A stretch of 64,000 nucleotides of DNA from Chiloscyllium plagiosum (taxonomy: Eukaryota), in assembly GCF_004010195.1 (NCBI RefSeq), contig NC_057719.1, forward strand, positions 42,062,239 through 42,126,238, given 5' to 3'. This document shows, one piece after another, positions 2,095 through 40,299 of this stretch. The notes under the pieces are model-generated. The model was not told where the DNA came from, did not search any database, and saw only the letters and a list, made by a program, of their open reading frames with translations. A program made the translations under genes and the position numbers. Positions within the stretch are counted from its first letter, which is position 1; every line of letters begins with the position of its first letter.

Positions 2095-2329
2095 AAACGG
2101 AAAGAACTGCAGATGCGGTCAATCAGAAACACAGACAGAATTTGCTGGGAAAACTCAGCAGGTCTGGCAGCATCTGTGGAGAGAAATCAGAGATAATGTC
2201 TCAGGTCCAGTGACTCTTCCTCAGAACCCCTCTGAGGAATGGTCACTGGACTAGAAATGTTAACTTTGATTTCTCTCCACATATGTTGCCAGAACTGCTG
2301 AGCTTTTCCAGCAATTTCTGTTTTTATGT
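2095..2329. mobile_element. Palindromic insertion of two head-to-head PLE termini, each with a hammerhead-like core
   Basis: Arms ~2137-2226 and ~2231-2320 are reverse complements; plus-strand core ctgagga-atggtc-actg-gacta-gaaatgtt at 2232-2261; TSD atgagctgttgtag (2081-2094) / atgagttgctgtag (2330-2343). Confidence 0.75.
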
Positions 2330-5300
2330 ATGAGTTGCTGTAGGGCTGGGTTATGGATTTTCTTCATCATGGATTTTTGGACCTTGCAATGCCTTGGTAT
2401 TAAGTGTATTTTCATTATAATTGAACAAGTTGTTGACCTAAGCTGCATGTAACTGATCCCTGATTGAATCTTGTTTTTCCCAATTATTTCATTTTTAACA
2501 CTGGATTCAAGGGCAAATCTGGAATTAAATTCTCTCAGGAGGAGGGTCTTTTCTTCTTTTGGAATGGCAATGAGGACTTCATCAAGGTCAGAATAGGGTT
2601 AGTCTCTGTAGTACTATCCCCATAATAATCTTTGTCTATTCAAAATAATTGTCCATAAAACATATTGGGCCTAGCTAATAAAAATCAGATGTGTTTCCAG
2701 GACATACTGTACTTTGTAAATGCTTAACAAATCAGGCTTTAATGTAAATTGTAGTGCATGGAACCATGAGTAAGTAGTGCCACAGACCAAAGTTAAAACT
2801 GTGACATGAGCTTTGAACAGAATACACTTAAAAGCTGTTATGAGGCACATGGGCATAGTTAGAATATATTTAATTAAAGACCACGTGAAATGGAACAAAG
2901 TATTTTAACTGGGAAACATTAATCATGCTAAAGATAGATAGAGGATAAAAGCATAAAACTGGAACTTTATGTGATCTTTTTTGCTAATGAAGACTAGTTA
3001 GGAACAGTGCCTACTCCAGAGATATGTCTTTATGCACACTGCAATAAATGCCTGCCTTGCTACCAGTGTCAGAAGTGTTTGAACTAATAAAACAAACTGT
3101 AAACTTTAGCTCATCCAACATACAACAAGTCTCACTGGTCCCATTGGCTCATTGCATCTCAATACTTCCAATTTAAAATTCTTATGTCCTCATGTAAATC
3201 ATTTCCTAACTTATTTCTTCCTCCATTATATCTTGCAGATCTACACGTCCCTTGAACTTTCTGTTTCTCTGACTCTGTGAAATCCTCCCTGAGATTATTA
3301 CAAATTTCACAAAGAAACAATTGATCTAAAATTGATGAACTTGTGTAATAAATATCTTCTAAACTTGACAATACCTGTTCCAGTGAAGTATATTTGTAAT
3401 CATGCAAAGTGTCTAAAAAAACTGCTATTGTTACATTGATAACTAGCTTTTGCTAGTATGAAGTTCCATTCCATCAATGTTTATTTTCTGCTGTAAAACA
3501 TTGTTTTAAAATATTTTGTTAGATTTTCATTTTTCTCTCTTTTATTTCTCACTTTAAATCATTTTGTTTCGTTGTTGAGATTCTGCAGTGTGCATCAACA
3601 ATTTTTCAATATGATTAGTTACGGAGATGCATGCTTGTTCAAATAGGTCCCATGTGTGCTGAAATGGCTTCCCTACTACCGTAGCTGCAGTAGAAAATCA
3701 CAAAACATCTGTAGGAAGGTGCAGGCATAATGAATGACTGATGTCATTTGTTTGCCAATCACACCAAATTCTGGCACAGCAAAACATCAGATCTCTACCC
3801 TTGAAGTCATTGTTAAACGTTTGAGTTCTGAAATTTAGGAAAGATGTGAAATGTATTCCTGTCAGAATGATCATCATCCAAATGGTCCACCTTCTCATGT
3901 AATGGGCATTAACTTGACATCACAGACTCTGGAGCTTGCATAGATTTATTTATGTGTTTCAAGCCCTAAAAGAAAAGGTCCTCAGTAGCATGACACATTA
4001 CAGAAATCCTTAACGTGGATGAAATGGATGAAAAAACGCAGGAATGTTGCATCTACCTGAAAAAGGAATAGAATTTTTAGGTAGGATCCACAGCACTGAT
4101 GATGTTCAGATACAATATCCAATGGGCCAATTAATTTTCAAAACAATCAAATTGACCTTTGCATTCTTATCTGAGTCCTAATGTGGGGTTTATCTCATTG
4201 TTACATCCTAGGAAAGCATTGTATTGAATTCCATTGTCAAATAGAATCATGGTGTCTTTAAAGAATGGAAACATAAAAGCCAAGGCAAGTTCACTAATGA
4301 TGTATAGACATTCGGAAGCACTTAAGGATGCAGTGAAGACATCATTGTTCAATGCACAAATGACTAGTGAAGAAATATATATTGAATGCTGGATGATATT
4401 TTATCAAAATAAAGTGCTACATGTAACCTCTGTTATTTCAAAGAAAGTCACAATGTCACGAAAATAAACCATACCAAGCATACTGCTTCCCAGTGAATGA
4501 TTAAGCTATACTGAATGGACTGCCTATTTTTTTGTCCAGAGAAAGCTTTTATGAATAACATCAAATATGTCTACATCATCAATCTTTTTCTTCTCAAAGC
4601 ACAGAGTCTAAATAGTAAAATACGGATGGTCTTTCAGCGTGTTGTTTAATCTATGAGATATAAATATGTAATGCCTTACTCAAATCTGAATACAGTAATG
4701 TCCCTATTTCATAACTGTATTACCTCATAACTTTGTCAACACGTCAATGTTGTGCTCATCTGCCACAGATTTCAGTGATAATAATTTTATGTTCAATTTA
4801 TTGTTTTATTTAATAAATATGGAAGGCCATGAACAAAACTGATGTATAGCTTACGGCACTGCATTCAAATCTGTAATATTGTTCACCAGTCACTTGTGTA
4901 GAATCCCTGATCTATGCATAAAATATTCTGAGTGATTTATGTTTTCAGTGTTCAGCAATGCTTAGTATTGTCAGTCCAGCACATGTCAGACTGGTTTTGG
5001 TCATTAACAAGCTCTTGCAATAGATTTTAATTTGCATTAATTATTTTGTGTTTGGCTCATTTATAACAGGAGCAAATAAATGAGTAAAATGGTTAGGTTT
5101 TCAATTAGTAATCTGTGAAATCCCCAATTTATCAGTTAAGTTGTACACATAAGTACGGTACAAAGATGGAGAAATTCATTCTAATGGACAGCACAGACCT
5201 AATCTGATTTTCTTAGGGCCATTGTTGTGTGCTATTCAAGTAGAAGGCAAAGAGCTTTCTGAAACCTCGCCCAGGGAACTGAGGCAAGTCTGCAAAATGC

Positions 5301-7196
5301 CATTAGAATTGGTACCACACAAATTGTCCCCCTAACACCCTAACACTTTAGTCTTTTGTCCAATATTTCACATGGAGCATAGAATTTATCTTAGTGAACA
5401 AGGTTTTCTTTCTACCAACCACTGCTCAATGTCAAACAAAGTCAGATGGACAGCAAAGTTCACATCTTTAACATTCCAGTTAAATCCAGCCAGGCTTTTG
5501 AGGGTTGAACATCTGGCTCAAGTGAAAGGAAAATAATCAGACTGACATGAATGCATTTTCAGTTTTATCGTTTAGATGAAAGCGTGTAGCCACTGCCTCC
5601 GAGTCAATGACAGTGATCCTTATGATACCATCTTGACCAGGATATTAGGTTGAGCAGTATGAGACTCCACCTGTTTCAGGAACAGGAAGCTACCTGTAAT
5701 AATGTAAATGTAAAATCTGTTTCATATATAGGATCATGATTCCAATTGTGAAGAAAAATTCATTAAGTTTGCACTGCACACATTTAGCACCAAGTTGCCC
5801 TTAAAGGGAACTCGGAAGGTCACTTAGAAAATGGACAAACTTTGCTTTTAATTAAAAATTTTGAAATGGCCATGCTGAGCAGGAAATATCTCCTGAATCC
5901 ACAAAAATGCTGCAGTCACCTGCTTGCCATTGCGATATCCTTGCTCTGGTTACCACTTCCCTCATCCTCCCCATTGTCTGACTGCAAATGGATCATAAGC
6001 TTTAGAACTGATTGATTCCCACACTCTCAAACCATCAAGGAGCTTTATTAATGAATAATTAGCCAGAAGCATGTGCCTCAAAGTGCTTGAGGCCTCGGCA
6101 CAATAATGAATGTTTGGTGGATGTGTCCCACTCAACATTTTCTGACTTGTATTCTTCAATGTTTAAAATGTTTTCTTTAATGAACAGTCTTTTATCTTGT
6201 TTTTGATCACCATGTATAATGGTATTACCATGACAACCTTCTGTAATCTGGAGGAGCATTGTAGAATCTCACATGCATTACTATGCCAAAATTCCTGGAA
6301 ATGGAAAGTTGCAAGAATTCATGTGCAAAGCACCTGATCTGAAATTAAATGCAAGTAACCTTTAACAGACACATTAGAGAGGGCAAATATGGAGCTGATT
6401 GAGGGTAACAGCTGCCACCACTTGATGTAAATGTTGTATATAGCATTTGAGTTTTTTTAAATCGAAAATATATTCTAACAAATTTAATGAAGTATTCTTT
6501 GCAATGTATTGAATTGGTAAAAACAATTGTGTTAAAAACAACCCTGATGAGACGATGGGGTTGCCGTTCTCAGCAAGCTATGCAATTTCTATTGCGTTTC
6601 CCACATGATTTAGAATAAGGATGCACCTTTCAAAGTGAAGCTGCAATCAATGTCGGAGACTTTATTAAAGAACTTGGAAGGTCTATCTGACAGCAAACAG
6701 GAGGTGAAGGACTGCAGCCCTACGTAACCAATAGAAATGGGGGTATGAATACCAATCTCATTTCAAAATGCTGGCAGGAGCATTTTCAGGGGCATTGTCA
6801 AGCAGGCTTGGGCTAAAAGGGTTTGTGCCAACTGTTTGAAGAAATGTCAGTGCTCCTAAATGTCCTGCCCTCCTCTCAATGACAAGCTCCCAGTGAGCAG
6901 GGATACATGGATTGCAATTCACCTGATAAATTTCAACAAGGTGTGATGACAATGAGCAATACCTGACAAAAGCTCCAAACCAAAACCAGAGCCATAGCTA
7001 AAAGGCCATAATCACTAAAATCCACAGAATAAACCAATGTCTCCTCTGCTGATATAATTCACATAGATAGCCTCAATTATTCATCAAAACTACAAGTCCA
7101 GTGTGATCATTATCACTTAACAAAACATTTTTTAAAAATTAACAGAATAAATGTAAAAGGATGTCATAAAAATTACAATTATTTGTAGCTGGTTTT

Positions 7197-9007: not shown

Positions 9008-9239
9008 AGTTAAGGAAAATAAAATCATGATAGTTGCATGCGTGCCTGAAACTGTGTTGGGAGTACAGATCATTCCATTCCTTTATATTAAACAATCTAA
9101 TCTACGAGCTGCGGGCTGCTCAATGGGAAAAATGCAATTATGGAGCGTGATTTACACACTGACCCTTGGCTGAGTTAAGAAATAATAGATATTCTTTACC
9201 AGGAAACTGTTGAGGGTATATATCCTGCGGTGTAAAATG

Positions 9240-9698: not shown

Positions 9699-10519
9699 CT
9701 ATAAGATGAATGGAAGTGTGTTAGTGTGTAGCCTTATGAAGGGTTTTGCTAAATGGGTGAGGCACCTTGGCATAGTGTCCGTGCTGAGAGGAGGAAGGAG
9801 TAATTTTAAGGGAAGTGTTGGTGCATACAACAAGCACATAAGGTTCAAGCAAATGTTGTATCGTGATGGAAGGAGAGGTACGGAAGTAAGTTAACCACTT
9901 CAGGGGTGTTAAAAAAAAAGTGAAAGATTGAAGATTTGAAAGATGGCAATCTTGTGAAGCTTGTTAAATATTGCCTTGCATTACAGTTATGTTCTGTGTG
10001 TGTGATTAAATCTATCCCCATATCACTTCAGTCACTCTATCACAAACATTTCTTGCTATTTCACATTTCGTGACAGCATGTGCTCTCCACCTCTCTCCAT
10101 TGCTGTTGATGAATTTATCTGGAAACCCAACATCAATCAGAAGAGGAATAGAACTTCTGCCTGTTGCTTACTTGCTCAATTAACCCCTTCATGGCACTAT
10201 CAGAATATCTGGGTGTCCCAGCTGAAGTTATTTCATCAGGTGAGAGAACAAGTGAGAGAACGAGAGAGAGAAAGAGAGAGAAGGATAGAATAGGCAGACA
10301 GAGGGATTGTTAATAGTAAGCCAGGAAAGAAAAGAAGCTAAGTTGATGATAATGGAGATGATGAGTAGTTGAAAATTGGCTGGCTGCACTGAAAGCAATC
10401 CACTTCATGGCAGGGAACCCCAGGACAGGACGCTATCTCTCTGAGTTCCCTCTCCTCTCCTTTCTCTGATTTTTCTCTACTGTTGTCATCACCACAAATA
10501 CCAACTTTTTCCTACTTGC

Positions 10520-10615
10520 TTTCAGTTCTGAAGGGTTGTTATTGGACTTGAAATATTAGCTCTGTTTTTCTCTTCAGAGATATTGCCAGACCTGCTGAGT
10601 TTCTCTGTTTTCATT
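10520..10615 (+). mobile_element. Decayed PLE terminal fragment
   Basis: ttctgaagggttgttattggacttgaaatatt...gccagacctgctgagttt matches the right arm of the 2095-2329 element. Confidence 0.55.
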
Positions 10616-12016
10616 TATTTCAGTTCTCCAGCCTGACAGTACTTAGTTTTATTTCAGGCTGTCTTTAAGTAGTGGCAACCTCCATGGATTACCTGCTCTT
10701 CAAACTAAAAGGTCGCCTGTGGGAAGTACAGTTGGTACTGAGATCTCACTGAATATATTTAGCTGTCACCTGACTATTACATGAAGGGGGCATAGCAGCC
10801 AGTCAATGGGAGGAGAGAACAACAGCCTGACTTACACTGACTATTTAACTCTATTCCTATATCACTTCAGTCACTCTATCACAAAACATTTCTTACTGTT
10901 TCTCAAGTTGTATTTCTATTACACTTATGAACACAATGATAAGACAGATGTTGAATGGGATAATACAACTGTTAAAATAATAGTGTAAGGAAGATTGTGA
11001 GAACTTGACTAATGTTAGTTTGCTAATAATAGTTATTTGTTGGCTAGACCTATTAAGGCTGTAATTTAGTGATGGGTTTCTATCTTTTACATGGGCTAGG
11101 ACAATGCTTTGCAGAATTTTCAGCACTTTGACCCCATTTTGGCCATGAAAATTGTCACAACTCCTAATTGAAAACTGTGAAGGGAAGGAAGGAAACCTAT
11201 GTGTACAAAGAATGTCCTTTTATAAGGGGTGGTGGGGGGGGGGAGACTTGTCTGTTTGTGCAGGACACGGTTGCTGTAATTCAGAACTCTGTAATGGCCT
11301 TACTCTTTGGGAGCACACGATCCCAAACCTTAAGCATGTGGCTCCATTTGGGACCTTGGACACCACTTTGGGTAAACATGAGTTATGATACCAACAGATA
11401 AATTACAATTTATGCAATTTATTTGATTGCTGTGAAACTTTCTCCTTCTGCAGAAATAATTTTGATTTTATTTTTCTTTGATCCATGTATTTCCCCCTTA
11501 TTAGACAAAACAGGTGGGAACATTGGCATCATGAAGTCATTGCAGATAGTTTAATTAGCAATTGACGCAAAAGAAGAATTCTAATCGATGTGATCAATTT
11601 GAAATATATTTTTCTCAACTTCAGAATCATTGATCAGAGAGGAAAAATGTTTAATATTGCTTCCAATAATTTCCTGTGTCTCTTGAGAAACAATAATGCA
11701 GTCAGGAATCTTTTATCCAAAAAAAGACATCAGGTCCAACTGTTTAATGGCTAAAGGATATTTTCAGTTTTTGTCTGCACTTGCTGTGAGTGGCTTGAGT
11801 CAGTGTTTTGTGCATTGGAACATCGATGTGTTAAGGAACTCAGAACTGCAGCTTGGTCAGTTGGAAAGGCTCCCTCCATTATAATTGTGCATTTGGTAAT
11901 TCAAAATAGAGATGACTTGTCAGTACCTCTGGTTTGTTCAGGTCCTTTGAATAAAACTTTACCTTTAGGTCTTTTCAGATTTGGACATGTGGTTAAAGGA
12001 TTTCTGACCTGTAATT

Positions 12017-14560
12017 CAGACCCCAGGGAAAAGACTTTGTCTATTTATCCTATCCATGCTCCTCATTATTTTGTAAACCTCTATAAGGTCAACCCTCAGC
12101 CTCCGATGCTCTAAGGAAAACAGCCCCAGCCTCTCCCTATAGCTCAGATCCTCCAACCCTGGCAACATACTTGTAAATCTTTTCGGAACCCGTTCAAGTT
12201 TAACAACATCTTTCCGATAGGAAGGAAACCAGAATTGCACGCAATATTATAACAGTGGCCTAACCAATGTCCTGTACAGCCGCAACTTGACCTCCCAACT
12301 CCTGTACTGAATTCTGTGACCAATAAAAGAAAGCATACCAAACGCCTTCTTCACTATCCTATCTACCTGCGACTCCACTTTCAAAGAGCTATGAACCTGC
12401 ACTCCAAGGTCTCTTTGTTCAGCAACACTCCCTAGGACCTTACCATTAAGTATATAAGTCCTGCTAAGATTTGCTTTCCCAAAATGCAGCACCTCATTTA
12501 TCTGAATTAAATTCCATCTGCCACTTCTCAGCCCATTGGCCCATCTGGTCCAGATCCTGTTGTAATCTCAGGTAACCCTCTTCGCTGTCCACTACATCTC
12601 CAATTTTGGTGTCATCTACAAACTTACTAACTGTACCTCTTATGCTCACATCCAAATCATTTATGTAAATGACAAAAAGTAGAGGGCCCAGCACCAATCC
12701 TTGTGGCACTCCATTGGTCACAGACCTCCAGTCTGAAAAACAACTCTCCACCACCACCCTCTTCTATCTTTGAGCCAGTTCTGTATCCAAATGGCTAGTT
12801 CTCCCTGTGTTCCATGAGATCTAACCTTGCTAATCAGTCTCCCATGGGGAACCTTGTTGAACACCTTACTGAAGTCCATATAGATCACATCTACTGCTCT
12901 TCCCTCATCAATCTTCTTTGTTACTTCTTCAAAAAACTGAATCAAGTTTGTGAGACGTGATTTCCCATGCACAAAGCCATGTTGACTATCCCGAATCAGT
13001 CCTTGCCTTTCCAAATACATGTACATCCTGTCCCTCAGGATTCCCTCCAACAACTTGCTCACCATCGAGGTCAGGCTCACTGGTCTATAGTTCCCTGGCT
13101 TGCCTTTATCGCCCTTCTTAAACAGTGGCATCATGTTTGCCAACCTGCAGTCTTCCGGCACCTCACCTGTGACTATCGATGATACAAATATCTCAGCAAG
13201 AGGCCCAGCAATCACTTCTCTAGCTTCCCACAGAGTTCTCGGGTACACCTGATCAGGTCCTGGGGATTTATCCACTTTTAACCGTTTAAAGACATCCAGC
13301 ACGTCTTCCTCTGTAATCCGGACATTTTGCAAGATGTCACCATCTATTTCCCTACAGTCTATATCTTCCATATCCTTTTCCACAGCAAATACTGATGCAA
13401 AATATTCATTTAGTATCTCCCGCATTTTCTGTGGCTCCACACAAAGGCCGCCTTGCTGATCTTTGAGGGGCCCTATTCTCTCCCTAGTTACCCTTTTGTC
13501 CTTAATATATTTGTAAAAACCCTTTGGATTCTCCTTAATTCTATTTGCCAAAGCTATCTCATGTCTCAGTTTTTCCCTCCTGATTTCCCTCTTAAGTATA
13601 CTCCTACTTTCTTTACACTCTTCTAAGGATTCACTCGATTTATCCTGTCTATACCTGACATATGCTTCCTTCTTTTTCTTTACCAAACCCTCAGTTTTTT
13701 TAGTCATCCAGCCTTCCCTTTCACCCTGACAGGAATATACTTTCTCTGGATTCTTGTTATCTCATTTCTAAAGGCTTCCCATTTTCCAGCCATCCCTTTA
13801 CCTGCGAACATCTGCCTCCGATCAGCTTTCGAAAGTTTTTGCCTAATACCGTCAAAATTGGCCTTTCTCCAATTTAGAACTTCAACTTTTAGATCTGATC
13901 ATTCCTTTTCCATCACTATTTTAAAACAAATAGAATTATGGTCGCTGGCCCCAAAGTGCTCCCCCACTGACACCTCAGTCACCTGCCCTGCCTTATTTCC
14001 CAAGAGTAGGTCAAGTTTTGCACCTTCTCTAGTAGGTAAGTCCACATACTGAATCAGAAAATTGGCTTGTACACACTTAAGAAATTCCTCTCCATCTAAA
14101 CCTTTAACACTATGGCAGTCCCAGTTGATGTTTGGTAAGTTAAAATCCCCTACCATAACTACCCTATTATTCTTACAGGTAGCTGAGATCTCCTTATAAG
14201 TTTGTTTCTCAACTTCCCTCTGACTACTGGGGGGTCTATAATAGAATCCCAAAAAGTTGATCATCCCTTTCTTATTTCTCAGTTCCACCCAAATAACTTC
14301 CCTGGATGTATTTCTGGGAATATCCTCCCTCAGCACAGCTGTAATGCTACCCCTTATCAAAACTGCCACTCCCCCTCCTCTCTTGCCTCCCTTTCTATCC
14401 TTCCTGTAGCATTTGTATCCTGGAACATTAAGCTGCCAGTCCTGCCCATCCTTGAGCCATGTTTCCGTAATTGCTATGATACCTCAGTCCCATGTTCCTA
14501 ACCATGCCCTGAGTTCATCTGCCTTCCCTGTTAGGCCCCTTGCATTGAAATAAAGGCAGT
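12017..14560 (-). pseudogene. CR1 ORF2 (endonuclease-RT), frameshifted
   Basis: ORF-track pieces 14484-14690, 13899-14369, 12718-13707, 12494-12757, 12247-12492 and 12016-12240 form consecutive parts of one ORF2. Confidence 0.9.
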
Positions 14561-14699
14561 TTAATTTATTAGTCCTACCTTGTCCCTGCCTGTCCTGACT
14601 CTTTGACTCACTTCTGTTCTCAGCTGTACCTGTCTCAGATCGATCTCTTTCCTCACTATCTCTCTGGGTCCCACCCCTCCCCCCCCACACCTTACTAGT

Positions 14700-15470
14700 T
14701 TAAATCCTCCCAAGCAGTTCTAGCAAATTTCCCTGCCAATTTAGGTGCAATCTGTCCTTGATGTACAGGTCACTTCTACCCCAAAAGAGATTCCAATGAT
14801 CCAAAAATGTGAATCCTTCTCCCATACACCAGCTCCTCAGCCATGCATTCATCTGCTCTATCCTCCTATTCCTGCCCTCACTAGCTCGTAGCACTGGTAG
14901 TAATCCAGATATTACTACCCTTGAGGACCTCCTTTTTAAATTTCTGCCTAACTCTCTGTAATCTCCCTTCAGAGTCTCAACCTTTTCCCTTCCAATGTCG
15001 TTGGTTCCAATGTGGACAATGTCCTCCTGCTGGCCCCTCTCCCCCGTGAGAACATTCTGCACCCTCTCTGAGACATCCTTGATCCTGGCACCAGGGAAAC
15101 AACACACCAATCTGCTTTTTCTCTGCTGGCCACAGAAACGTCTGTCTGTACCTCTGACTACGGAATCCACTAACACAATTGATCTCTTAGAAGCCAACAT
15201 ACCCCTCGTTGCATTAGAGCCAGTCTCAATACCAGAAACTTGGCTGTTCGTGCTACATTCCCCTGAGAATCCATCACCCCCTACATTTTCCAAAACAGCA
15301 TACCTGTTTGAAATGGGTATATCCACAAAAGACTCCTGCCCTAGGTGCTGATCTCTCTCGCCCTTCCTGGAGTTAACCCATCTATGTAACAGTATCTGAG
15401 ACTTGCCCCCCTTCCTATAACTGCCATCCATCACATACTGTTGCTGTTCCAAATTCCTCATCGCTTCTAT
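14700..15470 (-). pseudogene. CR1 ORF1, SGNH/GDSL esterase-like domain
   Basis: VLVDSVVRG (block I), CFPGARIKDV, VHIGTNDI (block III), DRLHLN (block V). Confidence 0.85.
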
Positions 15471-16484
15471 GCCGACATTTTCTTCAGACACCTATATTTT
15501 TCTTCAAGTTAAAAATACTACTAAGACACAACTTTATGCACCTCATAATTGTAACAAGGTTTACCAAACATATGATTTTCTAATGCAATTTTACTGTAAT
15601 AGTCTTATTGCCCCATACCCATAATGTCTGCTATTTTTGTTTGCTTTAACCTACACAGTTACAGCAAACCATGCCAGGGAAAATCCTTCTCAAGTTGGCT
15701 GTAATTTTCAACATTGAGACTTCAAGAGGTTTATGCAAACATCTATTTAATGTCAGCAGCCAACGATTGCAATATCCTTCCCATTAATTTGTTTTATGTT
15801 CAAATATTTGATGGTAGACAATGATTAGATTGAATTAGTTACTATAGAGACAGAAGCTTTCAGCTTCCAAAGTGAAATCAAAGCATTCATACCCTCAGCT
15901 CATTCCAATGTAATGCATTCATTTATCAATCCCAAAATCGTCATACATTTTACTCCAAAAATTCATTTTATTTTCCTGTAATAGCTCACTCAATCATAGA
16001 GTCATACAGCAGGAAACAGACCCTTTGGTCCACCTCATCTACACCAACCAGATATCCTAAAGTCCAATTGGTCAGCATTTGGTCCATATCTCTCTAAATC
16101 CTTCCTATTCATGTACCCATCCAGATGCCTTTTAAATGTTGCAATTGTACCAGCCTCCACCATTTCCTCTGGCAGCTCATTCTCTACACACCCCACTCGC
16201 TTGTGAAAACGTTTCCACTCAAGTCCCTTTTAATTCTTTCCCCTCTCATCTTAAACCTATGCCTGGTAGTTGCCCCCAACCTAGGAAAATAACCTTGGCC
16301 ATTCATCCTATCCATGTCCTTCATGATTTTACTAAACTTTATAAAGTCACCCCTCAGCCTCTGATGCTCCATGAAAAATAGCCCCAACCTATTCTGCCTC
16401 TCCCTATAGCTCAAAACCTCCAACTCTGGCAATATCCTTGTAAATCTTTTCTGAACCCTTTCAAGTTTAACAACATCTTTCCTA

Positions 16485-16738
16485 CGGAGAAAGTGAGGAC
16501 TGCAGATGCTGGAGATCAAAATCAAGAGTGTAGTACTGGAAAAGCACAGCAGGTCAGGCAGCATCCGAGGAGCAGGAGAATTGACGTTTCAGGCATAAGC
16601 CCTTCACATTATGCAATAGTGGAAGTGAAGAAGGTTATCTCAGAGAACAACAGGACCTTGCATAATGTGAACTGTCAATTCTCCTGCTCCTCGGATGCTG
16701 CCTGACCTGCTGTGCTTTTCCAGCACTACACTCTTGAC
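16485..16738. mobile_element. Palindromic PLE-terminus insertion with a captured spacer
   Basis: Arms ~16523-16585 and ~16674-16738 are reverse complements; exact TSD caacatctttccta at 16471-16484 and 16739-16752. Confidence 0.85.
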
Positions 16739-17127
16739 CAACATCTTTCCTATGGCAGGGAGACCAGAACTGAAAGAATTATCTTTAAAATTATCTCACC
16801 CATGTCCTGTGTAGCCACAACATGACCTTCTAACTCCTATACTCAATGCTCTGACCAATAACGGCAAGCATGCCAAATGCCTTCTTCACCTCCACGTCTA
16901 CCTGAGATTCTACTTTCAAGGAATTATGCACCTGCATCCCTCGGTCTCTTTGCTCAACAACATTCGCCAGACCTCTACTATTAACTTTATAAGTCCTCAA
17001 AGTTTGCTTTACCAATCTGCAACACCTGATAGTTATATAAATTAAACTCTATCTGCCATGCCTTGGCCCACTAGCTCATCTGATCAAGATCCTGTTGTTC
17101 TCTGAGATAACCTTCTTCACTGTCCAC

Positions 17128-17447
17128 TATAGCATCAATTTCAGTGTCATCTGCAAACTTACTAACAATTCCTCCTATATAGACATCTAAATAATTTATA
17201 CAAATATTGAAAACTGTGGATGTAGCACCGATCTTTACAGTACACTATTGGTCACAGGCCTCCAGTCCAAAAAACAGTCCAAAACAGGCCTCCAGTCCAA
17301 AATAGCATCAATTTCAGTGTCATCTGCAAACTTACTAACAATACCTCCTGTATAGACATCTAAATAATTTATACAAATAATGAAAACTGGTGGATGTAGC
17401 ATCGATCTTTCCAGTACACTATTGGTCAAAGGCCTCCAGTCCAAAAA
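17128..17447. repeat. Tandem duplication of a CR1 segment (~145-bp copies about 170 bp apart)
   Basis: atagcatcaatttcagtgtcatctgcaaacttactaac...ggcctccagtccaaaa at ~17128-17272 and ~17302-17447, with short repeated pieces at the junction. Confidence 0.9.
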
Positions 17448-18145
17448 ACAACCCACCATCATCATCCTCTGTCTCTGAATTTCAGTTCAATTTTGTATCC
17501 AATTAGCTAGCTCCCCATGTGACCTAACCTTGCTAAACAGTCTACCATGCGAAACCTTGTTGAACACTTGCTGAAGTCCATGTAGACAATGCCCTCCACT
17601 CTGCCTTCATCAATGTTCTTTGTCACCTCTTAAAAAAAACTCTATCAAGTTAGTGAGACATGATTTCCCATGGACAAAGCCATGTTGACTATCCCTAACC
17701 ATTTGTTGTCTTTTCAAATCCTGTCCCTCAGAACTGCCTTCAACAACATATCCATCACAGACATCACGCTCACTGATCTTTAGTTCCCTAACTGTTCCTT
17801 ATAGTCTTTCTTAAATAATGGCACTACATCAGCCACCTTCCAGTCTTCAGGCACCTCACCCATGGTTGTTGATAATACAAGTATCTCAGCAAAGGGCAAA
17901 TCTCTTCCTTAGCTTCCCACAAAATTATATGAGACATCTGATCAGGTCCCAGGGATTTTTCTACCTTAATGCATTCTAAGGCTGCCAGCACTTCCTCTTG
18001 TATAATTGGCTACTTTTCAAAATGTCACTATTTGTATGCACCACACCACAAACTAGCTTCTGCTAATCAACCATGAAAGTATTTGTCACTGTTTGAACAT
18101 TCTGGGCCATTCACAATTGTACTGTAGGAAGAATTGCCCCTGTAG

Positions 18146-19040: not shown

Positions 19041-19999
19041 TGCTGGTTATGGAAGAAAAATCACAGGTTGTCAACACTCTGAGGCCTACCAGAGAGCAGA
19101 CACCAGCTCGGTCCCAAGAAGGAGATCACCCCATTGCAATGCGTAAATAGACACAGAAGCAGTAAGCATATTTACCATAGTTACCCTGGGAACTAATTCA
19201 AAAGTTGGGGGAATGCTCAGGCAGTGCTATTTGTACTGTGCTGCCTCAGCATTTAAGGATCTGGCTGCCTCTAAATTGAAAGGTAGGCTGGTAGCATCCA
19301 GGACCAGCAGTCTCAGTGTCTGCCAAACATGTGCAGAAACCTATACTCCATCTCTACAGTCATTGGTGCAAGGCAAGAGAGTAATGAGAGACCTTGACCT
19401 CCCACCAGGTTCACCTTACTCTCAAAGAGACAGGTTGGTGCCAGTATGTACCTAGCCTGTGGAGGAACCATAAACAGCAACTCCCACCCCAAATGTCTCC
19501 TCTCACACCAAACTATAGGTGGCCAGCCCTACGACCTCTACCCTCAATCCCCAACCCTGTGGAAGTTCAAGACAAGGAAGGTGAGCCTGCATCAGAATAT
19601 GTATGAACCTTCAATCCACAGAAGTTCTCAGGGTCACCCTTTCAAAACCACTTGGCCAACAAGCTTCACTTTAGAAAAATCAGAAATTGCTGGACAAACT
19701 CAACAGGTCTAACAGCATCGATGGAGAGAAAGCAGAGTCAACATTTGGGTCCAGTGATGATTCTTCTGAAGGCACCTAAGCCTGGAAGGATAGCAACAGG
19801 AACTGGCCACATCCACTAGAGCTTGATGCTGGTCCTGAGCTTCCAATATGCATGAAGTTATCATTGCTCCCTGTATAACAGCCACAATAAATGTGATCAT
19901 TTAACTGTCGAAACACGCACCAACAACATTTGAACATCATCCTCCAAATATATTGTTCTCAATGTTGAAAGTTTCATTTTTCTGACTTCACAATATTTT

Positions 20000-22295: not shown

Positions 22296-22880
22296 ATCTT
22301 TTCTTATTCAGTGCCTATTCTACCAAAATTAACAGCCCTTGATCTGTCTTTAGTGCTATCACATCAGAGACCCATTTCAAGGTCCTATGAAAACATTTTG
22401 TGCTTTTGGATATTTTGGCCAAATCACTTACTACTATCAAACTTGTTACCCGAACTAAAATGAGAAATAATGTAAAACTTCCTCACATCTCAGTATGTAT
22501 TGCAAGGTGATGTGTTTAGCTTTATAAATATAGTGTAATTACTTTGGCAAATACTAAATCAGATGCTACATTTCTATATTGACTAGCAGTGTTTTAAAAG
22601 CATATTCACATAGAATATGATTACTAGACTGCCAAATTGAAGCTTTACAGCCAAGAGGTACAATGTTGTTAAGTAAGTGTTAAGTGATGATGAGTTTGAC
22701 TGAAATCATCCTGTTTTCTCTTTTTGCTTAAACCTGATTGATAACATTCATGTAAATTAGGCGGAATTGCTGTGTGTGCTCTCCCAATCTTCAAATGCAA
22801 TTTCTCTAGGGTTGCAGCAATCTTCCACTTAAGTTATGGAAAGAGATTGAGCACATCTTCAGTTTCATGGCTGCAGCGAT

Positions 22881-24663: not shown

Positions 24664-24762
24664 TTGACAAAGGGTCAGTTAGACTCAAAACGTCAGCTCT
24701 TTTCTCTCCTTACAGATGCTGCCAGACCTGCTGAGATTTTCCAGTATTTTCTCTTTTGGTTT
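24664..24762 (+). mobile_element. Solo PLE terminus (~100 bp) starting at a decayed hammerhead core
   Basis: ttgacaa-agggtc-agtta-gactc-aaaacgtc, then gatgctgccagacctgctgag; exact TSD cagaaaactac at 24653-24663 and 24763-24773. Confidence 0.75.
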
Positions 24763-26564: not shown

Positions 26565-26785
26565 TGTCGAAAAGTGTGGCACTGGAAAAGTACAGCAGGT
26601 CAGGAGGCATCCAAAGAGCAGGAGAGTTGACATTTCTGGCATAAGCCCTTCATTACGAATGAAGGACTTATGCCTAAAACGTCGAATCTCCAGCTCATCG
26701 GATGCCACCTGACCTGCTGTGCTTTTCCAGCGCCACACTTTTTGACTCTAACTCTCCAGCATCTGCACTCCTCACTCTCTCTCAG
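26565..26785. mobile_element. Palindromic PLE-terminus insertion
   Basis: Symmetry centre cccttcatt-acg-aatgaagg (~26655); TSD tggctttttatcag (26551-26564) / tggctttgtttcag (26786-26799). Confidence 0.8.
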
Positions 26786-32200: not shown

Positions 32201-33286
32201 ACAAGCAGAAAATTGCACCACCCTCTGCATCATTTCGGCTTCTAAGCGGTAAAAGTCATGGCCTCCCACATCTGTCTGCCTTTCCTATTCCTCTCTGTGC
32301 ATTTGGATCAAACCCTTGTTTGCCGATACACAGGGTCTTCTCCTGGCTGAGCCTGACGAAGGAGAAAGCTTGTGATTTCAAACAAACCTGTTGGACTGTA
32401 AGCTGGTGCTGTATGATTTGCCTGAGTGTGAGCACGGGCCTGGCCTTGGGCAGTCCTCCGAGTGCCAGCGACTAGGAGCATTTTCTCCTCAGCCAGCTGC
32501 AGAGCTGTCACCATGAGGTCCAACCAGGTTGTGGTCTCACACTTTCTAAAACCATTCTCACTGTGATGTCAGTGTCCGAGCTGATGAAGGCTGAAGGAGG
32601 AAGCCTTGCTGATTCTTCTTCTGAGGCCTCAGTTCTCTCACCCTCAGAGGTCAATATGGCTGCTTCTAGGGGAGAGACCTATTGCTGTGTGGAAGGGGTT
32701 GACATCCTGCTGGCAGCTGCAGGACAGAAGAGAGAGAATCAGTATCACAGCCAGTGATTAGGAGGGGTATACAATGAATTACATTGACAGCAGGGTTAAG
32801 GTGAGAGTTACAGTGGAAAACCTGCCCATTCGGTGGGACATAAATGTCTCAGTATCCCCACAGGAGACCAACCCAATCTTCTCCTGTGAAGGCTTAGGGT
32901 TTCTAAGCTTGTTGGGGCCAAAGAGTCCATCATCAGGCACCTCTGCACCAAATCTGGTGAGTTGTCTTCTCCTGGCAATGAGAGAAAGGGAGGGGGTGAG
33001 CGAGGTGAAGGTGAGTAGAACAGCTATCCATCCCAGAGCAGGTTCTGGCGGGGTGAAGGGGGAAGATGGTGTGCTGTCCTGAGTGAGTGAATAGGAAGCT
33101 CACTGGCCATGCAGAATTAGTGGTGGGGAGGTTGGGATGGGGAATGAGAATAGGTGAGAAAAGATGTTTCTGAGAGTGACAGAGCATGAAGCTTGATGGC
33201 AGTAGGTGCAGCAGCAGAGAGGAGAGTGGGGCACTTACCCTGACAGAGAGGAGAGGAGAGTGTCTTTCCTTTACAACCTGGAGATG

Positions 33287-33512
33287 ATAGGCGAAAGTGA
33301 GGACTGCAGATGCTGGAGATCAGAGTCAAGATTAGAGCGGTGCTGGAAAAGCACGGCAGGTCAGGCAGCATCCGAGGAGCAGGAAAATTGACAGGCAGGG
33401 ACCAGATTAGTACAGAGGTGCCTGATGAAGGACTTTTGCCTGAAACGTTAACTTTCCTGCTCCTCGGATGCTGCCTGACCTGCTGTGCTTTTCAAGCACC
33501 ACTCTAATCTTG
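33287..33512. mobile_element. Palindromic PLE-terminus insertion
   Basis: Arms ~33326-33391 and ~33448-33513; exact TSD aacctggagatg at 33275-33286 and 33513-33524. Confidence 0.85.
33421..33452 (+). ncRNA. Minimal hammerhead ribozyme core
   Basis: ctgatga-aggac-tttt-gcct-gaaacgtt: CUGAUGA and GAAAC boxes intact; the cleavage triplet reads GTT instead of GTC. Confidence 0.6.
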
Positions 33513-34061
33513 AACCTGGAGATGGTACTAATGCTCAGAGCTAGCAGGCAGGGTCTAATAGTGCAACATTTGGGAAGGTGACTCCTTCCCTTTTCACCAC
33601 GCCATCCACCATGTCCCTGTCAGTGAAGCATGGTGCCATCATTCCCTTCTCTACTGTGTTCTAATTCTGTCCATCATTGAGTGGATAATTTTGGTCAGCC
33701 AGTGCTCATCCAGGTACACAGTGCTGTTTCAAAGGCAGCAGGTCTGCAAGAGATGCCAGTCTTTGAGCAGATATCCTTGAGTTGTGAGTTATTCCAGGAA
33801 TGGGATGTTGTAAGATGAGGCATAGGTCAAATGTGAGAGATGCTAAAGGGAAGTTGATAGGAATTAATGAGGTGGGTTTAGCAAAATAGAATGAGAAAAC
33901 TCACCAGGCCTCTTGGTGAAAAACACTCCAAAACAGTAAGATTTAGCATTATGTTTTTCTCCCATTAAAGCCAGACTGACTTTCAATTTTTTAAGAAGTG
34001 TGTGTAAAAATATGGCTTTATTAATAAGGCAAAATTTTAGTCCTTAACAATTTCTCTTTAA

Positions 34062-35208
34062 CATAGAGTCATAGAGATGTACAGCATGGAAACAGACCTT
34101 TCGGTGCAACCTGTCCATGCCGACCAAATATCCCAACCCAATCTAGTCCCACCTGCCAGCACCCAGCCAATATCCCTCCAAACCCTTCCTATTCATATAC
34201 CCATCCAAATGCCTCTTAAATGTTGCAATTGTACCAGTCTCCACCACTTCCTCTGGCAGCTCATTCCATACATGTACCACCCTCTGTGTGAAAAAGTTGC
34301 CCCTTAGGTCTCTTTTATATCTTTCCCCTCTCACCCTAAACCTATGCCCTCTAGTTCTGGATTCCCTCGCCCCAGGGAAAAGACTTTGCCTATCCATGCC
34401 CCTCATCATTTTGTAAACCTCTATAAGGTCACCCCTCAGCCTTCGACGCTCCAGGGAAACAGCCCCAGCCTGTTCAGCCTCTCCCTGTAGCTCAGATCCT
34501 CCAATCCTGGCAACGTCCTTGTGAATCTTTTCTGAACCCTTTCAAGTTTCACAACATCTTTTCGATAGGAAGGAGACCAGAATTGCATGCAATNNNNNNN
34601 NNNNNNNNNNNNNNNNNNNNNNNNNNNNNNNNNNNNNNNNNNNNNNNNNNNNNNNNNNNNNNNNNNNNNNNNNNNNNNNNNNNNNNNNNNNNNNNNNNNN
34701 NNNNNNNNNNNNNNNNNNNNNNNNNNNNNNNNNNNNNNNNNNNNNNNNNNNNNNNNNNNNNNNNNNNNNNNNNNNNNNNNNNNNNNNNNNNNNNNNNNNN
34801 NNNNNNNNNNNNNNNNNNNNNNNNNNNNNNNNNNNNNNNNNNNNNNNNNNNNNNNNNNNNNNNNNNNNNNNNNNNNNNNNNNNNNNNNNNNNNNNNNNNN
34901 NNNNNNNNNNNNNNNNNNNNNNNNNNNNNNNNNNNNNNNNNNNNNNNNNNNNNNNNNNNNNNNNNNNNNNNNNNNNNNNNNNNNNNNNNNNNNNNNNNNN
35001 NNNNNNNNNNNNNNNNNNNNNNNNNNNNNNNNNNNNNNNNNNNNNNNNNACCAAACGCCTTCTTCACTAACCTATCTACCTGCGACTCCACTTTCAAGGA
35101 GCTATGAACCTGCACTCCAAGGTCTCTTTGTTCAGTAACACTCCCTAGGACCTTACCATTAAGTGTATAAGTCCTGCTAAGATTTGCTTTCCCAAAATGC
35201 AGCACCTT
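34062..35208 (-). mobile_element. 5'-truncated CR1 LINE spanning an assembly gap
   Basis: MLHFGKANLSRTYTLNG... and RDLRGNFFTQRVV...; tail catagagtcatagag; near-identical to the 8562-9007 and 12017-12490 copies. Confidence 0.92.
34594..35049. other. Assembly gap (N run)
   Basis: 456 N bases. Confidence 1.
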
Positions 35209-35976
35209 GCGTTAAAGGTTGCATCAATTTCTATTTTTTAGATGAAATTCAAGGAATGGCTGATAGCGCTCCTCACATTTATTTTTATTCACCAATAAGA
35301 TCCTGGATCTAAATTAAGTCATTTGGATATTCATCATTAGTGGAATTCACCGAATGATAATGAGCAAATATCCATAACAGAATTATGTTAGCTAACTTGT
35401 GTTTTGCCCTTTCTCCATAATCAAACTAGACTCGGTTTCAATTCAGAACTAATATGACAGACAACACTTTGCTAATGTAATTTTCCAAATGGAATAGAAC
35501 AGAATAGCAGTTTATTGTCACTTGTATTTATGAAAAAGTCGCCACAATTCGATGCCATTTTAGTTTCAGAAATTATGAAAAGTAATAATTGAGATAAAGT
35601 TAGGACAAAGTTAATTTTTGTTTCCTCCACAGCTCCTGGGATTATGGAGGGACTACGGGAAGCTGCCATTAAAGCAGTCTCTGAGGCAGCCAAAGCAAGG
35701 TTTGCCGGACCAGACCGACCACGCTGTTACCACCGAAGCCAAGGCTGAAGTCAAAGCCTTGGAAGGAGGGACAGACCTGATCAGACTACCATGTCGTCAA
35801 TGCTGAAGCTGTTGCCCCTTCATGGCCGCCCAAAGTCACCGTATTGCCACAGTAGCCAAGAGAAATGAACCAGAACCACCATCCAGCCACTACTGTAGCC
35901 ACCAATGAAACCACTGCCCGGAGCAATGGACCAGACTCACCGACAATGAAGCCTTTGGTAAAGTTGTGGCCACTAT

Positions 35977-36253: not shown

Positions 36254-36558
36254 ACCACACTGCTGCCACAGCAGGAGACTCTCGCAGTCACAGAAAAGTA
36301 GAAAAAGTGAATTTTGATACAAAAGAGAAATGAAGAACTGAAGAAACTAAACAAAAAAAAACCAAAGAAGAATGTGGCCAGCCAGGTGAGCATTCGCGTA
36401 CAAGCACAGAGCCCAAACACTTCCAACCCTGTCGCCACCACCATCTTGAGAAAAAGGAGGGTTAATCCTTCATTTTGATGTTCTTTGAGGATAGATTCAT
36501 TACATGGTTGTAGATATGAATGAACAACTCCGAGGTTTTGGTTGGGTGGTTTACTTCT

Positions 36559-38783
36559 CAGAGAAAGTGATGAGTGCAGATGCTGAAGATCAGAATTGAA
36601 AAGTGTGGTGCTGGAAAAGCACAGCTGGTCAGGCAGCATCCGAGGAGCAGGAGAGTCAACGTTTTGAGCATAAGCTCTTCATCAGGAATGTGGGATGGCC
36701 CAAAGGGGGCTGAGAGATAAATAAGAGGGTGGGGGGAGCTGGGCAGACAGGTAGCTGGGAATGTGAAAGGAAGATGGAGGTAGGGGTGATGGTGATAGGT
36801 TGGAGAGGAGGATGGAGCGGATAGGTGGGAAGGAAGGTGGACAGGTCAACAGGGCAATGCTGAGTTAGAGGGTTGGTTCTGGGATAAGGTAGGGGAGGGG
36901 AAGTGAGGAAACTGGTGAAATCTAAGTTGATCCCATGTGGTTGGAGGTCCCAAAGTGGAAAATGAGGTGTTCTTCCTCCAGGTATTGGGTGGCTAGAGTT
37001 TGGCGGTGGAAGAAGCCAAGCACTTGCATGTCCTTGGCAGAGTGGGAGAGGGAGCTGAAATGTTCGGCCACAGAGCAGTGGGGTTGATTGGTTTGTGTGC
37101 CTCAGAGATGTTCTCTGAAACATTCTGCAAGTTGGCATCCTGTCTCTCCAATGTAGAGGAGACCATATCGAGAGCAATGGACACAGTAGATGATGTGTAT
37201 GGAAGTACAGGTATATCTCTGTTGGATGTGGAAGAATCCTTTAGGGCCTTGGATGGAGGTGAGGGGGAGGTGTGAGCACAGGTTTTGCACTCCTTGTGGT
37301 GGCAAGGGAAGGTGCCAGGAGTGTAAGGTGGGTTGGTGGGGAATGTGGACCTAACAAGGGAGTCAGGGAGGGAATGGTCTCTGCAGAACGCAGATAGGGC
37401 GGGGAGGGAAATATATCCCTGGTGGTGGGGTCTGTTTGTCGATGGCGGAAGTGGCAGTGGATGACGCGATGTATCCGGAGGTTGGTCAAGTGGAAGGTGA
37501 AGACCAGGGGGCTCTGTCCTTGTTGCAGTTGGAGGGGTGGGGTTCAAAGCCGGAGGTGCAGGAAGTGGAGGAGATGCACTGGAGGGCATCATTGACCACG
37601 TGGGAGGGGAAATTGCGATGTTCTATGGTGGAATTGGTCCTCCTGGGAGCAGATGCAGTAGAGGCCGAGGAATTGGGAGTAAGGGATAGCATTTTTACAG
37701 GAGGTAGGGTGGGAGGAGGTGTAGTCCAGGTAGCTGTGGGAGTCGGTGGGTTTGTAGTAGATGTCTGTGTTGAATTGGTCTCCGCAAATGGAGATGTCAG
37801 GTGCAGGAAAGGGAAGGAGGTGTCCAAGATGGTCGAGGTGAACTTGAGGTCAGGATGGAAGGTGTTGATGAAGTTGATGAACTGTTCAACTCCTAATGTG
37901 AGCACACAGTGGCGCTGATACAGTAGTTGATGTAGAGGAGGTAATGGTGGGGAATGGTGCCAGTGTAGCTGCAGAAGGTGGATCGTTCCACGTACCTGAA
38001 GAGGCATGCAAAGCTGGGGCCCATGTGGAAGCCCAAGGCTACCCCTTTGGTCTGGGAAAAGTGGGAGAATTCGAAGCACAACTTGTTGAGGATGAGGACC
38101 AGTTCAGCCAATCGAATGAGTGCATCAGTGAAAGGGTACTGGCTGGATCAATGGGAGAGGAAGGTACGGAGGGCTTGGAGACCTTTGTCATGGTGGATGG
38201 ACGTGTATAGAGACTGAATGTCCATGGTGAAGATGCGGAACATTTCAGAGAACTTCTCTGGGACACGCGCACCAATCAACTCCACTGCCCTGTGGCCGAA
38301 CACTTTAACTCCCCCTCCCAGTCCGCCAAGGACATGCAGGTCCTGGGCCTCCTCCACCTCCAAACTCTAGCCACCTGACGCCTGGAGGAAGAATGCTTCA
38401 TCTTCCGCCTTGGGACATTCCAACCGCACAGGATCAATGTTCATTTCACCAGTTTCCTCATTTCCCCTCCCCCACCCTATCCCAGATCCAACCCACTAAC
38501 TTGGCACCACCTTCTTGAACTGTCCTACCTGTCCATCTCCCTTCCCATCTATCCGCTCCATCCTCCTCTCCAACGATCACCATCTCCCCCCACCTTCATC
38601 GACCTATTCCATTCCCAGCTACCTTCCCCACAGCTCCACCCATCTCCCATTTATCTCTCAGCCAACCTTGGGCTCCCTTCATTCCTGATGAAGAGCTTAT
38701 GCTCAAAACGTCAACTCTCCTGTTTCTCAGGGATGGATGCTGCCTGACTGGCTGTGCTTTCCCAGCTCCACATTTTTTGACTC
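36559..38783 (-). mobile_element. Penelope-like element: minus-strand RT-GIY-YIG body (36559-~38232) plus an inverted terminal repeat (~38233-38783)
   Basis: FTMDIQSLYTSIHH, QTKGVALG..MGPSFACLF, HIIYCVHCSRYGLLYIGETG...FREHL; both ends carry cctgatgaagagcttatgctcaaaacgt; TSD tggtttactt at 36547-36556 and 38784-38793. Confidence 0.9.
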
Positions 38784-40095
38784 TGGTTTACTTTTAAGTA
38801 GAGCATGGATCATACAATAGCATATAGTCATCAACATTCACACAAAACGTTAGTTCTCATCAGTTGAGTCAACTAATGTATAATTGCTACTTTCCTCTTG
38901 TGCAACATCTGTTTATTGTGACAACATATTTCTTCAAGCTTCTAATTTTAAAAATCTGCTTTGCATGCTTGAGATGAATACCTGTTTGATGACAAATGTA
39001 CTATTTAAGGCCAGGTGGGGTGATCTAACAAGACTGCTGTACAAACTGACTCAGTGTAATTCATTAGGTCAACAAATGGGACTCGCATAAGAGTAAAGGT
39101 GTGTCACCTAACAGATTCATTAGAAGTTACAGAGTCAATTTCCTTGTCCTGTGCTGTACATGACTGCCCCCAGGTGGCTATACATTAGTATGAAATCAGT
39201 CAGTGGTCCCAACTGAAGGGTGACAACAAACTTTACTAAAACAGCTGTGTTGCAAATTAAGGGAAGGAAACCAAAGGATATACCATGTACAGAAACAAGC
39301 GAAACACCAGAAATATCAGACTAGCAAAGTGAACACCTAGAGATTGATATAATGTCAGGAAAAAATTATTGTTATTGAATATTTTAGACAAGTAATTGGG
39401 AACAGCTTTAAGGAAGTGGAAAGGCTTGATTGAAAGTGTGAAAGGGTTCACATAAGCAGAGTTTTGTTAATTTGTTCTTATAAAGAGGACATCACATTAA
39501 TTATTATGGAGGTCTGGCTAGATGACTTCCGACAGCACTTTTCAAGTATTCTTAAATTCTATGCATCAATAAATGAACTGTTTTCATTATGACTGAAATT
39601 TTATTTCCTGACAAAGGCAGCAATATACACCATAAAATATTTCACAACCTCTGACCACAACTTGGAGATATATTAGTTCCATATTTAACATAAAGACATT
39701 TAGTGTTACCAAGCCACAAATATGAAAGATTGTGGTTTAGAAATATTGGTGAGTATTCTTCTGATCTTTTCATACAACTTTGGCCAAATCAGCAGATATT
39801 TGTGAGCAACCATGAAACTAGCATCTTTTATCAGTTCTGTGGCAGTTCTATCAAAGTTGTAGGCAAGGATCGGAGATTCCTCTACTGAATAAAACTATCC
39901 CTCTGCATTCTTAATGTTTACTTTCCATCAGAAGAAAGTTTCACCAACAGATCATTACTTCAGTGTTATTCCTCTATTCAATAATCTTAGGTTACTATAG
40001 ATTGTCTTGTAAGTGTGGTGCAAGGAACACGGATTCAGAACGGTGAACTTAAAATTGATGTCAGGAAGGTATATGGTGGACTAACTCCATATAGT

Positions 40096-40220
40096 AGAAA
40101 GTGAGGACTGCAGATGCTGGAGATCAGAGTCGAGACTGTGGTGCTGGAAAAGCACAGCAGGTCAGACAGCATCCGAGGAGCAGGAGAATTGACATTTCAG
40201 GCATAAGCCCTTCATCAGGA
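40096..40220 (-). mobile_element. Solo PLE terminus beginning at the hammerhead core
   Basis: Minus strand cctgatgaagggcttatgcctgaaatgtc...; TSD aactccatata (40083-40093) / aactccgtata (40221-40231). Confidence 0.8.
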
Positions 40221-40299
40221 AACTCCGTATACTTGCCTTTGGCCAATATCCCTTATCATCTTAGCTTAACAAAAACATATCAATCTCAGATTTAAAATT

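Follow-up and report, generated by a model that had tools for sequence, protein, structure and literature searches.

Endonuclease-containing Penelope-like elements (EN+ PLEs) are described as building their insertions from a pseudo-long terminal repeat (pLTR), an adjacent inverted pLTR and a tail of 30–40 bp at one end only, all flanked by a target-site duplication (TSD), and solo pLTRs are described as well (PMC3846280, PMC8557442). Biochemical work has shown that the PLE reverse transcriptase (RT)-endonuclease cuts both target strands 10–14 nt apart and primes internally at two sites ~35 nt apart and close to the beginning of the unit, to which the two PLE 3' ends have been traced; ribozyme mutants leave insertion in vitro unchanged, and no reads end at the hammerhead cut site (PMC11167929). 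Minimal hammerhead ribozymes have been catalogued in metazoan PLEs (PMC4209133), and the animal non-long-terminal-repeat (non-LTR) retrozymes are by definition arrays of head-to-tail units, each with its own hammerhead, that give a circular RNA; monomers occur, and retrozymes are reported in one chondrichthyan genome (PMC7229834; bioRxiv 10.64898/2026.07.22.740005). Here we analyze short hammerhead-bearing insertions in 64,000 nucleotides of the shark Chiloscyllium plagiosum (NCBI RefSeq assembly GCF_004010195.1, contig NC_057719.1, forward-strand positions 42,062,239 to 42,126,238), a stretch that we call the window and in whose coordinates all positions are given. A sequence-only reading of this DNA had proposed that six such insertions form a non-autonomous, retrozyme-like family whose 5' boundary is fixed by the ribozyme.

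We find that these inserts are end pieces of Neptune-type PLEs, the short ones consisting of the last 90–135 bases of the element, single or as mirror-image pairs. We consider it probable (roughly 0.7) that they are by-products of ordinary PLE retrotransposition that start mostly 24–31 bases before the hammerhead cut site, whether the start reflects run-off of the RT or a stop whose cause is left open. A search of the window with BLAST and an nhmmer profile revealed 16 arms in 11 insertions and nothing further above E 0.6. Counting 5' positions from the predicted scissile bond (read by eye from alignments, including that of 19681, and from BLAST for long copies), 10 of the 16 arms begin at −24 to −31, one at −3 and none at +1, while five reach further, to about −95 at 10542, where the extent is uncertain, and to −415 to −1575 in the others. 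Among the six listed insertions, 9 of 10 arms end 24–31 nt upstream of the scissile bond, the left arm of 33287 being the one at −3; the right arm of 16485 is counted at −24 on the assumption of an internal stem II deletion between TGAA repeats, and read literally would be a second −3. Clustering as tight as this (10 of the 16 arms within 10 nt) was attained in 0 of 20,000 simulations under three smooth length models, and counting per insertion under a median-matched model gave p = 0.0001–0.0002, the null models being fitted to the same 16 arm lengths. The sequence-only reading was thus correct in holding that random truncation does not account for the breakpoints. Tailed and tail-less short arms differ in median length by ~28 nt (124 and 96 nt), yet their median 5' positions are nearly equal (−25 and −29.5); where copying stops therefore depends on position in the element, not on length.

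The same reading had placed the boundary at or next to the catalytic core, which holds as far as proximity goes; the arms mostly end at the front of the core. The further claim, that ribozyme action fixes this boundary, fails, since the cut site is copied intact. The inserts contain the cut site together with the entire core, so the RNA that served as template was uncleaved there; this argues against the mechanism first proposed and agrees with the normal insertion by Anolis ribozyme mutants (PMC11167929). Beside this boundary, a pyrimidine tract ending in CAG (10506–10531) directly precedes the hammerhead at 10542, where stubs of one of the two families described below begin; judged from this one copy of uncertain extent, it could be a 3' splice site. 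The long copies of the other family have an AG 37–57 nt upstream of the cut site. Our literature search, with supplements and subscription papers outside its reach, found no paper that treats PLE stubs of sharks, or PLE stubs whose 5' ends are clustered or fixed in position.

All six insertions of the earlier list (2095, 16485, 24664, 26565, 33287 and 40096) were recovered where they had been placed, as four head-to-head palindromes and two solo copies of 98–254 bp. Their TSDs, given there as 11–14 bp, measure 14, 14, 12, 14, 12 and 11 bp with 0–2 mismatches. In a control, 8 of 3000 random flank pairs attained 10/11 matches (within ±6 nt); four of the six insertions pass this cut, and 2095 and 26565 score 9/11. 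Four of the inserts consist of the PLE terminal repeat only, as had been claimed for all six; 16485 and 33287 also hold non-PLE filler from the local flank. The window copies fall into two families ~60–66% alike: family A comprises 16485, 26565, 33287, 40096 and the long copies, and family B comprises 2095, 24664, 19681 and 10542. Five copies are additional to the earlier list (19681, 10542, 21513–22297, 36557–38783 and 58266–59103), and no TSD was found in a search of those at 10542, 19681, 21513 and 58266. The copies and their parts are as follows.

2095–2329: family B head-to-head palindrome, tailed arm on the minus strand (2095–2226) and tail-less arm on the plus strand (2231–2329), identified by alignment and TSD (2081–2094/2330–2343, 12/14 identical).
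10526–10640, plus strand: family B end, upstream extent uncertain, without a detected TSD.
16485–16738: family A palindrome inside a CR1 long interspersed element (LINE), with a tailed minus-strand arm (16486–16606), filler (16607–16667) and a tail-less plus-strand arm lacking stem II (16668–16738); TSD 16471–16484/16739–16752, 14/14 identical.
16611–16660, plus strand: part of this filler, derived from the local flank at 17085–17135 on the opposite strand (48/51 alike).
19670–19770, minus strand: family B stub, tail-less, starting at about −31, identified by BLAST and alignment, without a detected TSD.
21513–22297, plus strand: 5'-truncated long PLE copy (linker, GIY-YIG and end), tail-less, identified by BLAST and tblastn.
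24665–24762, plus strand: family B solo stub, tail-less, starting at about −27; TSD 24653–24664/24763–24774, 12/12 identical.
26565–26785: family A palindrome, tail-less arm on the minus strand and tailed arm on the plus strand, the centre being collinear with an inverted repeat naturally present across the CUGANGA box; TSD 26551–26564/26786–26799, 12/14 identical.
33287–33512: family A palindrome, tailed minus-strand arm ending at −3, filler, and tail-less plus-strand arm from −29; TSD 33275–33286/33513–33524, 12/12 identical.
33413–33428, plus strand: junction piece of this palindrome, a 16-nt exact match to the local flank at ~32930–32945 on the opposite strand.
36557–38783: long inverted PLE insertion, 1.7-kb tailed arm with RT and GIY-YIG remnants on the minus strand and 550-bp tail-less arm on the plus strand, identified by tblastn (E 3e-91) and its own 10-bp TSD (36547–36556/38784–38793).
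40094–40220, minus strand: family A solo stub with tail, starting at about −30, both catalytic boxes present; TSD 40083–40093/40221–40231, 10/11 identical.
58266–59103: long PLE copy, tailed 3' arm on the minus strand (to 58778) linked to an inverted piece from further upstream in the element (58784–59103), identified by BLAST and tblastn.

The pieces of the last copy do not overlap: their junction is twin-priming-like, with ~160 nt missing and a small inverted repeat at ~58770–58785, and differs from the overlapping head-to-head type. A miniature inverted-repeat or other DNA transposon was considered for the short inserts and dropped, the arms being asymmetric by their tail and unequal in length, as was post-insertion deletion of long copies, since the TSDs abut the stubs and the boundaries coincide across families. 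Pattern scans beyond the window gave 0 matches in metagenome contigs with a 32-nt pattern and 0 in viral contigs; a 20-nt pattern gave 17 matches in metagenome contigs, none extending past 21–27 nt, as expected by chance.

Read on its sense strand, the repeat carries CUGANGA, one extra A, a stem II of 4–5 bp and GAAAC-GUH, followed by 65–105 nt. The CUGANGA and GAAA boxes, the extra nucleotide after A9 and the NUH site are all present in the family-majority alignment. Across 14 arms (two without a core were left out), 79% of stem cells are paired versus 16–37% in slid controls, a comparison in which sequence kinship inflates the shuffle test and the structure is drawn from the same sequences. 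Stem II has two-sided changes in 3 of 4 pairs, stem I pairs weakly (61%), and CG stands at the palindromic positions 15.2–16.2 in 7 of 14 arms. Layout, pairing and covariation therefore agree with the earlier identification of a minimal hammerhead of the PLE terminal repeat, its cleavage activity being a prediction only. The Rfam check suggested for it found no match to any hammerhead family at E ≤ 1, the scan of the window giving only a chance mir-722 match (E 0.2), and whole-stub folds are not unusually stable (z −2.4 to +0.2, 6 segments). The cut sites predicted in the 2095 insertion lie after 2195 (minus strand) and 2261 (plus strand). Both catalytic boxes are intact in 3 of 10 arms of the six listed insertions and 4 of the 16 window arms; much of the loss looks like CpG decay. 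In the right arm of 16485 (16668–16676), what is missing is stem II, precisely the interval between two direct TGAA repeats, a loss that slippage across the hairpin could have produced.

At their other end, the arms finish at one of two 3' points separated by ~35 nt, tailed or tail-less, and each of the five head-to-head insertions (the four short ones and the 2.2-kb copy at 36557–38783) combines one arm of each kind. This one-tail rule matches described PLE insertions, so the palindromes are the shortest form of a known insertion type; likewise, since the 2.2-kb TSD-flanked copy is built like the short palindromes, their architecture is the known PLE one. The centres of the four short palindromes all differ. 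In 16485, 50 nt match flanking CR1 sequence 350 bp away (with a 32-nt exact match equaled in 0 of 279 random 2-kb regions); in 33287, the 16-nt match lies 340 bp away (0 of 272 random regions equal it), and this junction piece overlaps the first catalytic box as microhomology. The centre of 26565 is collinear with the element's own inverted repeat over CUGANGA (23/26 to 38676–38701), and the arms of 2095 lie five bases apart; a flank search yielded no nearby source for the centre of either 2095 or 26565. Because all centres differ and two are patched locally, the mirror form was most likely built at each landing rather than copied from a palindromic master.

Upstream of the terminal repeat, three longer family A insertions run into open reading frame (ORF) remnants, with RT followed by a GIY-YIG endonuclease as in EN+ PLEs. 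The frame at 21565–21921 matches 242 proteins, the best two of which come from Chiloscyllium punctatum (70% and 63%). The matched proteins P0001 and P0096 carry RT and GIY-YIG motifs and cover 38225–36946 in order (tblastn, E 3e-91); their matches to RVT_1 and GIY-YIG are weak, only GIY-YIG of P0096 exceeding the curated cut-off, and a Pfam scan of six broken-frame window proteins gave 0 matches. A C-x4-C-x2-C motif occurs in the ORFs at 21562–21924 and 36993–37622 and, between RT and endonuclease, in P0001. The corresponding Neptune linker is given as CX2-5CxxC (PMC8557442), and by this motif the parent fits a Neptune-type PLE; Poseidon, considered earlier as a label for the element, was dropped once the motif was found. 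The window holds no full-length copy with two direct pLTRs.

We compared stubs and long copies in a tree of family A only (11 rows by 128 columns, five family B arms left out; family B has no sure long copy for comparison). The short label needs 3 changes on this tree, a number as low in 219 of 500 shuffles, and 0% of bootstrap trees unite the short copies in one clade. Instead, 33287 groups with the long copy at 22200, and the right arm of 26565 with 36553/38785 (supports 87–88). That two families give the same stub, together with the mixed tree, favors stubs that arose again and again as by-products over a single non-autonomous family; some of the stubs may still be masters. The separate retrozyme-like family of the sequence-only reading is thus not borne out: the stubs belong to two families, are mixed with long copies (on a weak tree), share the TSD, tail and inversion build of the 2.2-kb copy, and have neither head-to-tail tandems nor a common palindrome centre.

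Set against the described systems, the window insertions share head-to-head arms, a tail on one arm, TSDs (10–14 bp here), junction microhomology or palindromes and solo repeats with EN+ PLE insertions (PMC3846280, PMC8557442), and differ in that most copies here lack ORF sequence and stop at one fixed position; no description of such clustering was found in the passages of those papers that were consulted. With the metazoan PLE hammerheads they have in common the type I core, the extra nucleotide after A9 and the palindromic 15.2–16.2. The account in PMC4209133 describes mostly single dispersed motifs, ascribed to truncated PLEs, and some close opposite-strand pairs, as here; those pairs lie 100–700 bp apart, compared with at most 65–95 bp between cut sites in the window, and that paper names no shark in the parts consulted and maps no insertion boundaries. 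Poseidon of Anolis (PAc) likewise has two 3' ends ~35 nt apart, ~65–105 nt downstream of the hammerhead, and an uncleaved template (PMC11167929). It is a Poseidon element whose ORF starts in stem II, whereas the window element has the Neptune-type Cys linker. Retrozymes, as characterized in PMC7229834 and bioRxiv 10.64898/2026.07.22.740005, resemble the stubs in being short and non-coding, with a type I hammerhead, kinship to PLE repeats and long TSDs. The stubs are not retrozymes: they are solo or head-to-head, with head-to-tail units in 0 of the 11 window insertions, their ends lie off the cut site, and, unlike retrozymes, they bear the tail that marks PLEs and have minimal cores, most of which have decayed. 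Published work already covers solo and inverted pLTRs, as well as lone minimal hammerheads left by truncated PLEs.

We further compared positions 36538–37437, as reference, with public records at 80% likeness: two DNA contig runs (two organisms), one raw single-cell polyA RNA run and one contig run guessed to be RNA. The DNA runs placed ~95,000 and ~94,000 contigs, a contig depth that does not equal copy number. Raw-read depth was 2034–2371 downstream of the cut site and 1081 over the core, fell to 77 and then 14 in successive 30-nt bins at the core front, and averaged ~37 over the ORF. Loose ends at 36664 numbered 640, 642, 196 and 86 records in the four runs; in the three contig runs the consensus beyond 36664 continues through the whole core (agreement ~0.5), and that of the raw run differs. 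No pile of molecule ends appears among the loose ends listed (24 of 3176), and upstream of 36690 the reference departs from the main subfamily. These records support abundant terminal-only copies with an intact core and do not amount to a measurement.

A by-product origin can be put as a sequence of steps. The RT-endonuclease would cut both target strands and prime on the RNA at either of two sites, as PLE biochemistry suggests (PMC11167929). The cDNA passes the cut site and stops, as the arms record, at a fixed position of the element, which may be the 5' end of the RNA, set by a start site or a splice boundary; in D. virilis, a start site is placed 46 nt before a 75-nt intron (PMC2377424), which is described as ending at helix I (PMC4209133). 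The PLE transcript presumably contains the priming site twice, near its 5' and its 3' end, so that priming on the 5'-proximal terminal repeat would yield products of ~95–135 nt and priming on the 3' copy long, variably truncated ones. One cDNA would leave a solo stub and two a head-to-head pair, its centre closed anew at each landing by microhomology (26565) or by a flank patch (16485, 33287), where the match is observed and the joining mechanism would follow from it. Within the probability given above, the narrower proposal that the stop is run-off of the RT at the 5' end of an uncleaved RNA is tentative, falling a little short of even odds.

Several observations weigh against this account. 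No RNA 5' end of the element was observed, the sole raw-read run being polyA single-cell with no pile of starts; the 5' junctions have no shared leader or consistent extra G (a cap-derived G was considered and dropped, with a short C run only at 2095); no proteins starting with the terminal reading frame were found, which is weak evidence, and the window has no full-length copy to show the terminal segment as an ORF start. The arm at −3, or two such arms if 16485 is read literally, departs from the common stop. The depth cliff in the raw reads is inflated by reference bias (reads simulated from the window copies reproduce the cliff, at a ratio of only 6–7 versus an observed 59); of the loose ends at 36690, many carry on for ~12 nt as PLE sequence of another subfamily. 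A hairpin lies just upstream of the stop in all four long family A copies (−4.3 to −9.8 kcal/mol, without a shuffle control); these hairpins, at 38660–38680, 36690–36712, 58396–58415 and 22180–22196, form although the sequences there differ. They speak for the main rival, which we hold to be unlikely: that the RT, on a long template, stalls or jumps at RNA structure at the hammerhead front and the cDNA is joined there. The collinear centre of 26565 fits such stalling, palindromes are described at inverted PLE junctions (PMC3846280), and a front hairpin folds at −5.5 (38785) and −4.4 (10542) kcal/mol; of the 5 longer copies folded, however, 3 have a weak front hairpin or none (−1.4, −1.7 and 0), and the RT makes no stops at stem II or at the stronger hairpins predicted downstream (−8.8 to −14.6). 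Moreover, the stop is at the same place in solo stubs and in pairs bridged by filler, which involve no arm-to-arm annealing.

Two features raise instead a short interspersed element (SINE)-like family, in which short master loci are self-transcribed and mobilized in trans. A private stretch of 10 nt ahead of the core is common to the two arms of 16485, which implies one common template or one arm copied from the other and is one point away from assembly at each landing; and the family A tree is weak, with no starred branch, so that a one-clade topology is not rejected (approximately unbiased test, p-AU 0.062). In public reads and contigs the terminal segment is also far more abundant than ORF sequence, and pLTR sequences alone are described as able to mobilize cargo in trans (PMC3846280). 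We nevertheless find this distinctly doubtful, because two unrelated families and at least three family A lineages yield the same stub, these lineages are each nearest a long copy in diagnostic features (the pairings supported at 87–88), every palindrome centre differs, and no promoter or leader is common to the stubs. Least probable by far is self-cleavage setting the inserted RNA end, as in the sequence-only reading, which in this window is largely refuted. In its favor, the motif fits a minimal hammerhead with covariation, one arm stops at −3, and a joint linking opposite strands at 36654 and 36690 (about +4 and −33) recurs in both DNA runs (4 and 7 contigs, among 15 of 927 joints). This joint near the cut site, a further point against a wholly uncleaved template, means that a minority of arms may end there and some templates may be cleaved. 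Against cleavage, 10 of 11 short arms hold the uncut site with its 24–31 upstream nucleotides, and insertion in Anolis Poseidon dispenses with it (PMC11167929). Tandems are lacking among the short copies, and head-to-head motifs lie on opposite strands, so that one transcript would contain one ribozyme and its antisense.

Elsewhere in the window, copies at 12000–15500, 16060–17900, 34060–35210 and 43800–45850 are, by their translations, CR1-type LINEs; one is near full length with endonuclease and RT frames, that at 16060–17900 encloses the 16485 palindrome, and an assembly gap (N run, 34590–35050) lies within that at 34060–35210. Broken LTR-retroelement-like pol pieces with protease, RT, RNase H and integrase-like frames occupy 52800–56100 (minus strand) and 60560–63970 (plus strand). 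The 300-bp repeat present at 50716 and 57502 is a possible LTR pair, and a 49-bp tandem repeat at 60135–60295 has approximately three copies.

For the role of PLE hammerheads, the stubs offer a record, left by nature, of how PLEs are reverse transcribed: in this genome the copied RNA usually carried an uncut hammerhead, whose front edge is where copying stops. If this edge is the RNA 5' end, the internal priming of Anolis Poseidon predicts such products of ~100–130 nt, and the thousands of lone minimal hammerheads across animal genomes would be explained. A bolder version, which we regard as a long shot, is that shark PLEs make a short uncleaved RNA from the hammerhead front edge (set by a start site or 3' splice site rather than by cleavage) that is copied whole, and that some stubs act as masters of a SINE-like layer arising repeatedly in each PLE family and now far outnumbering coding copies; if so, stub ends would map the PLE RNA 5' end genome-wide, and the 5' edge of the hammerhead, not its cut, would bound the unit. 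The value of the finding lies in a mechanistic clue inside a known system, rather than in a new system.

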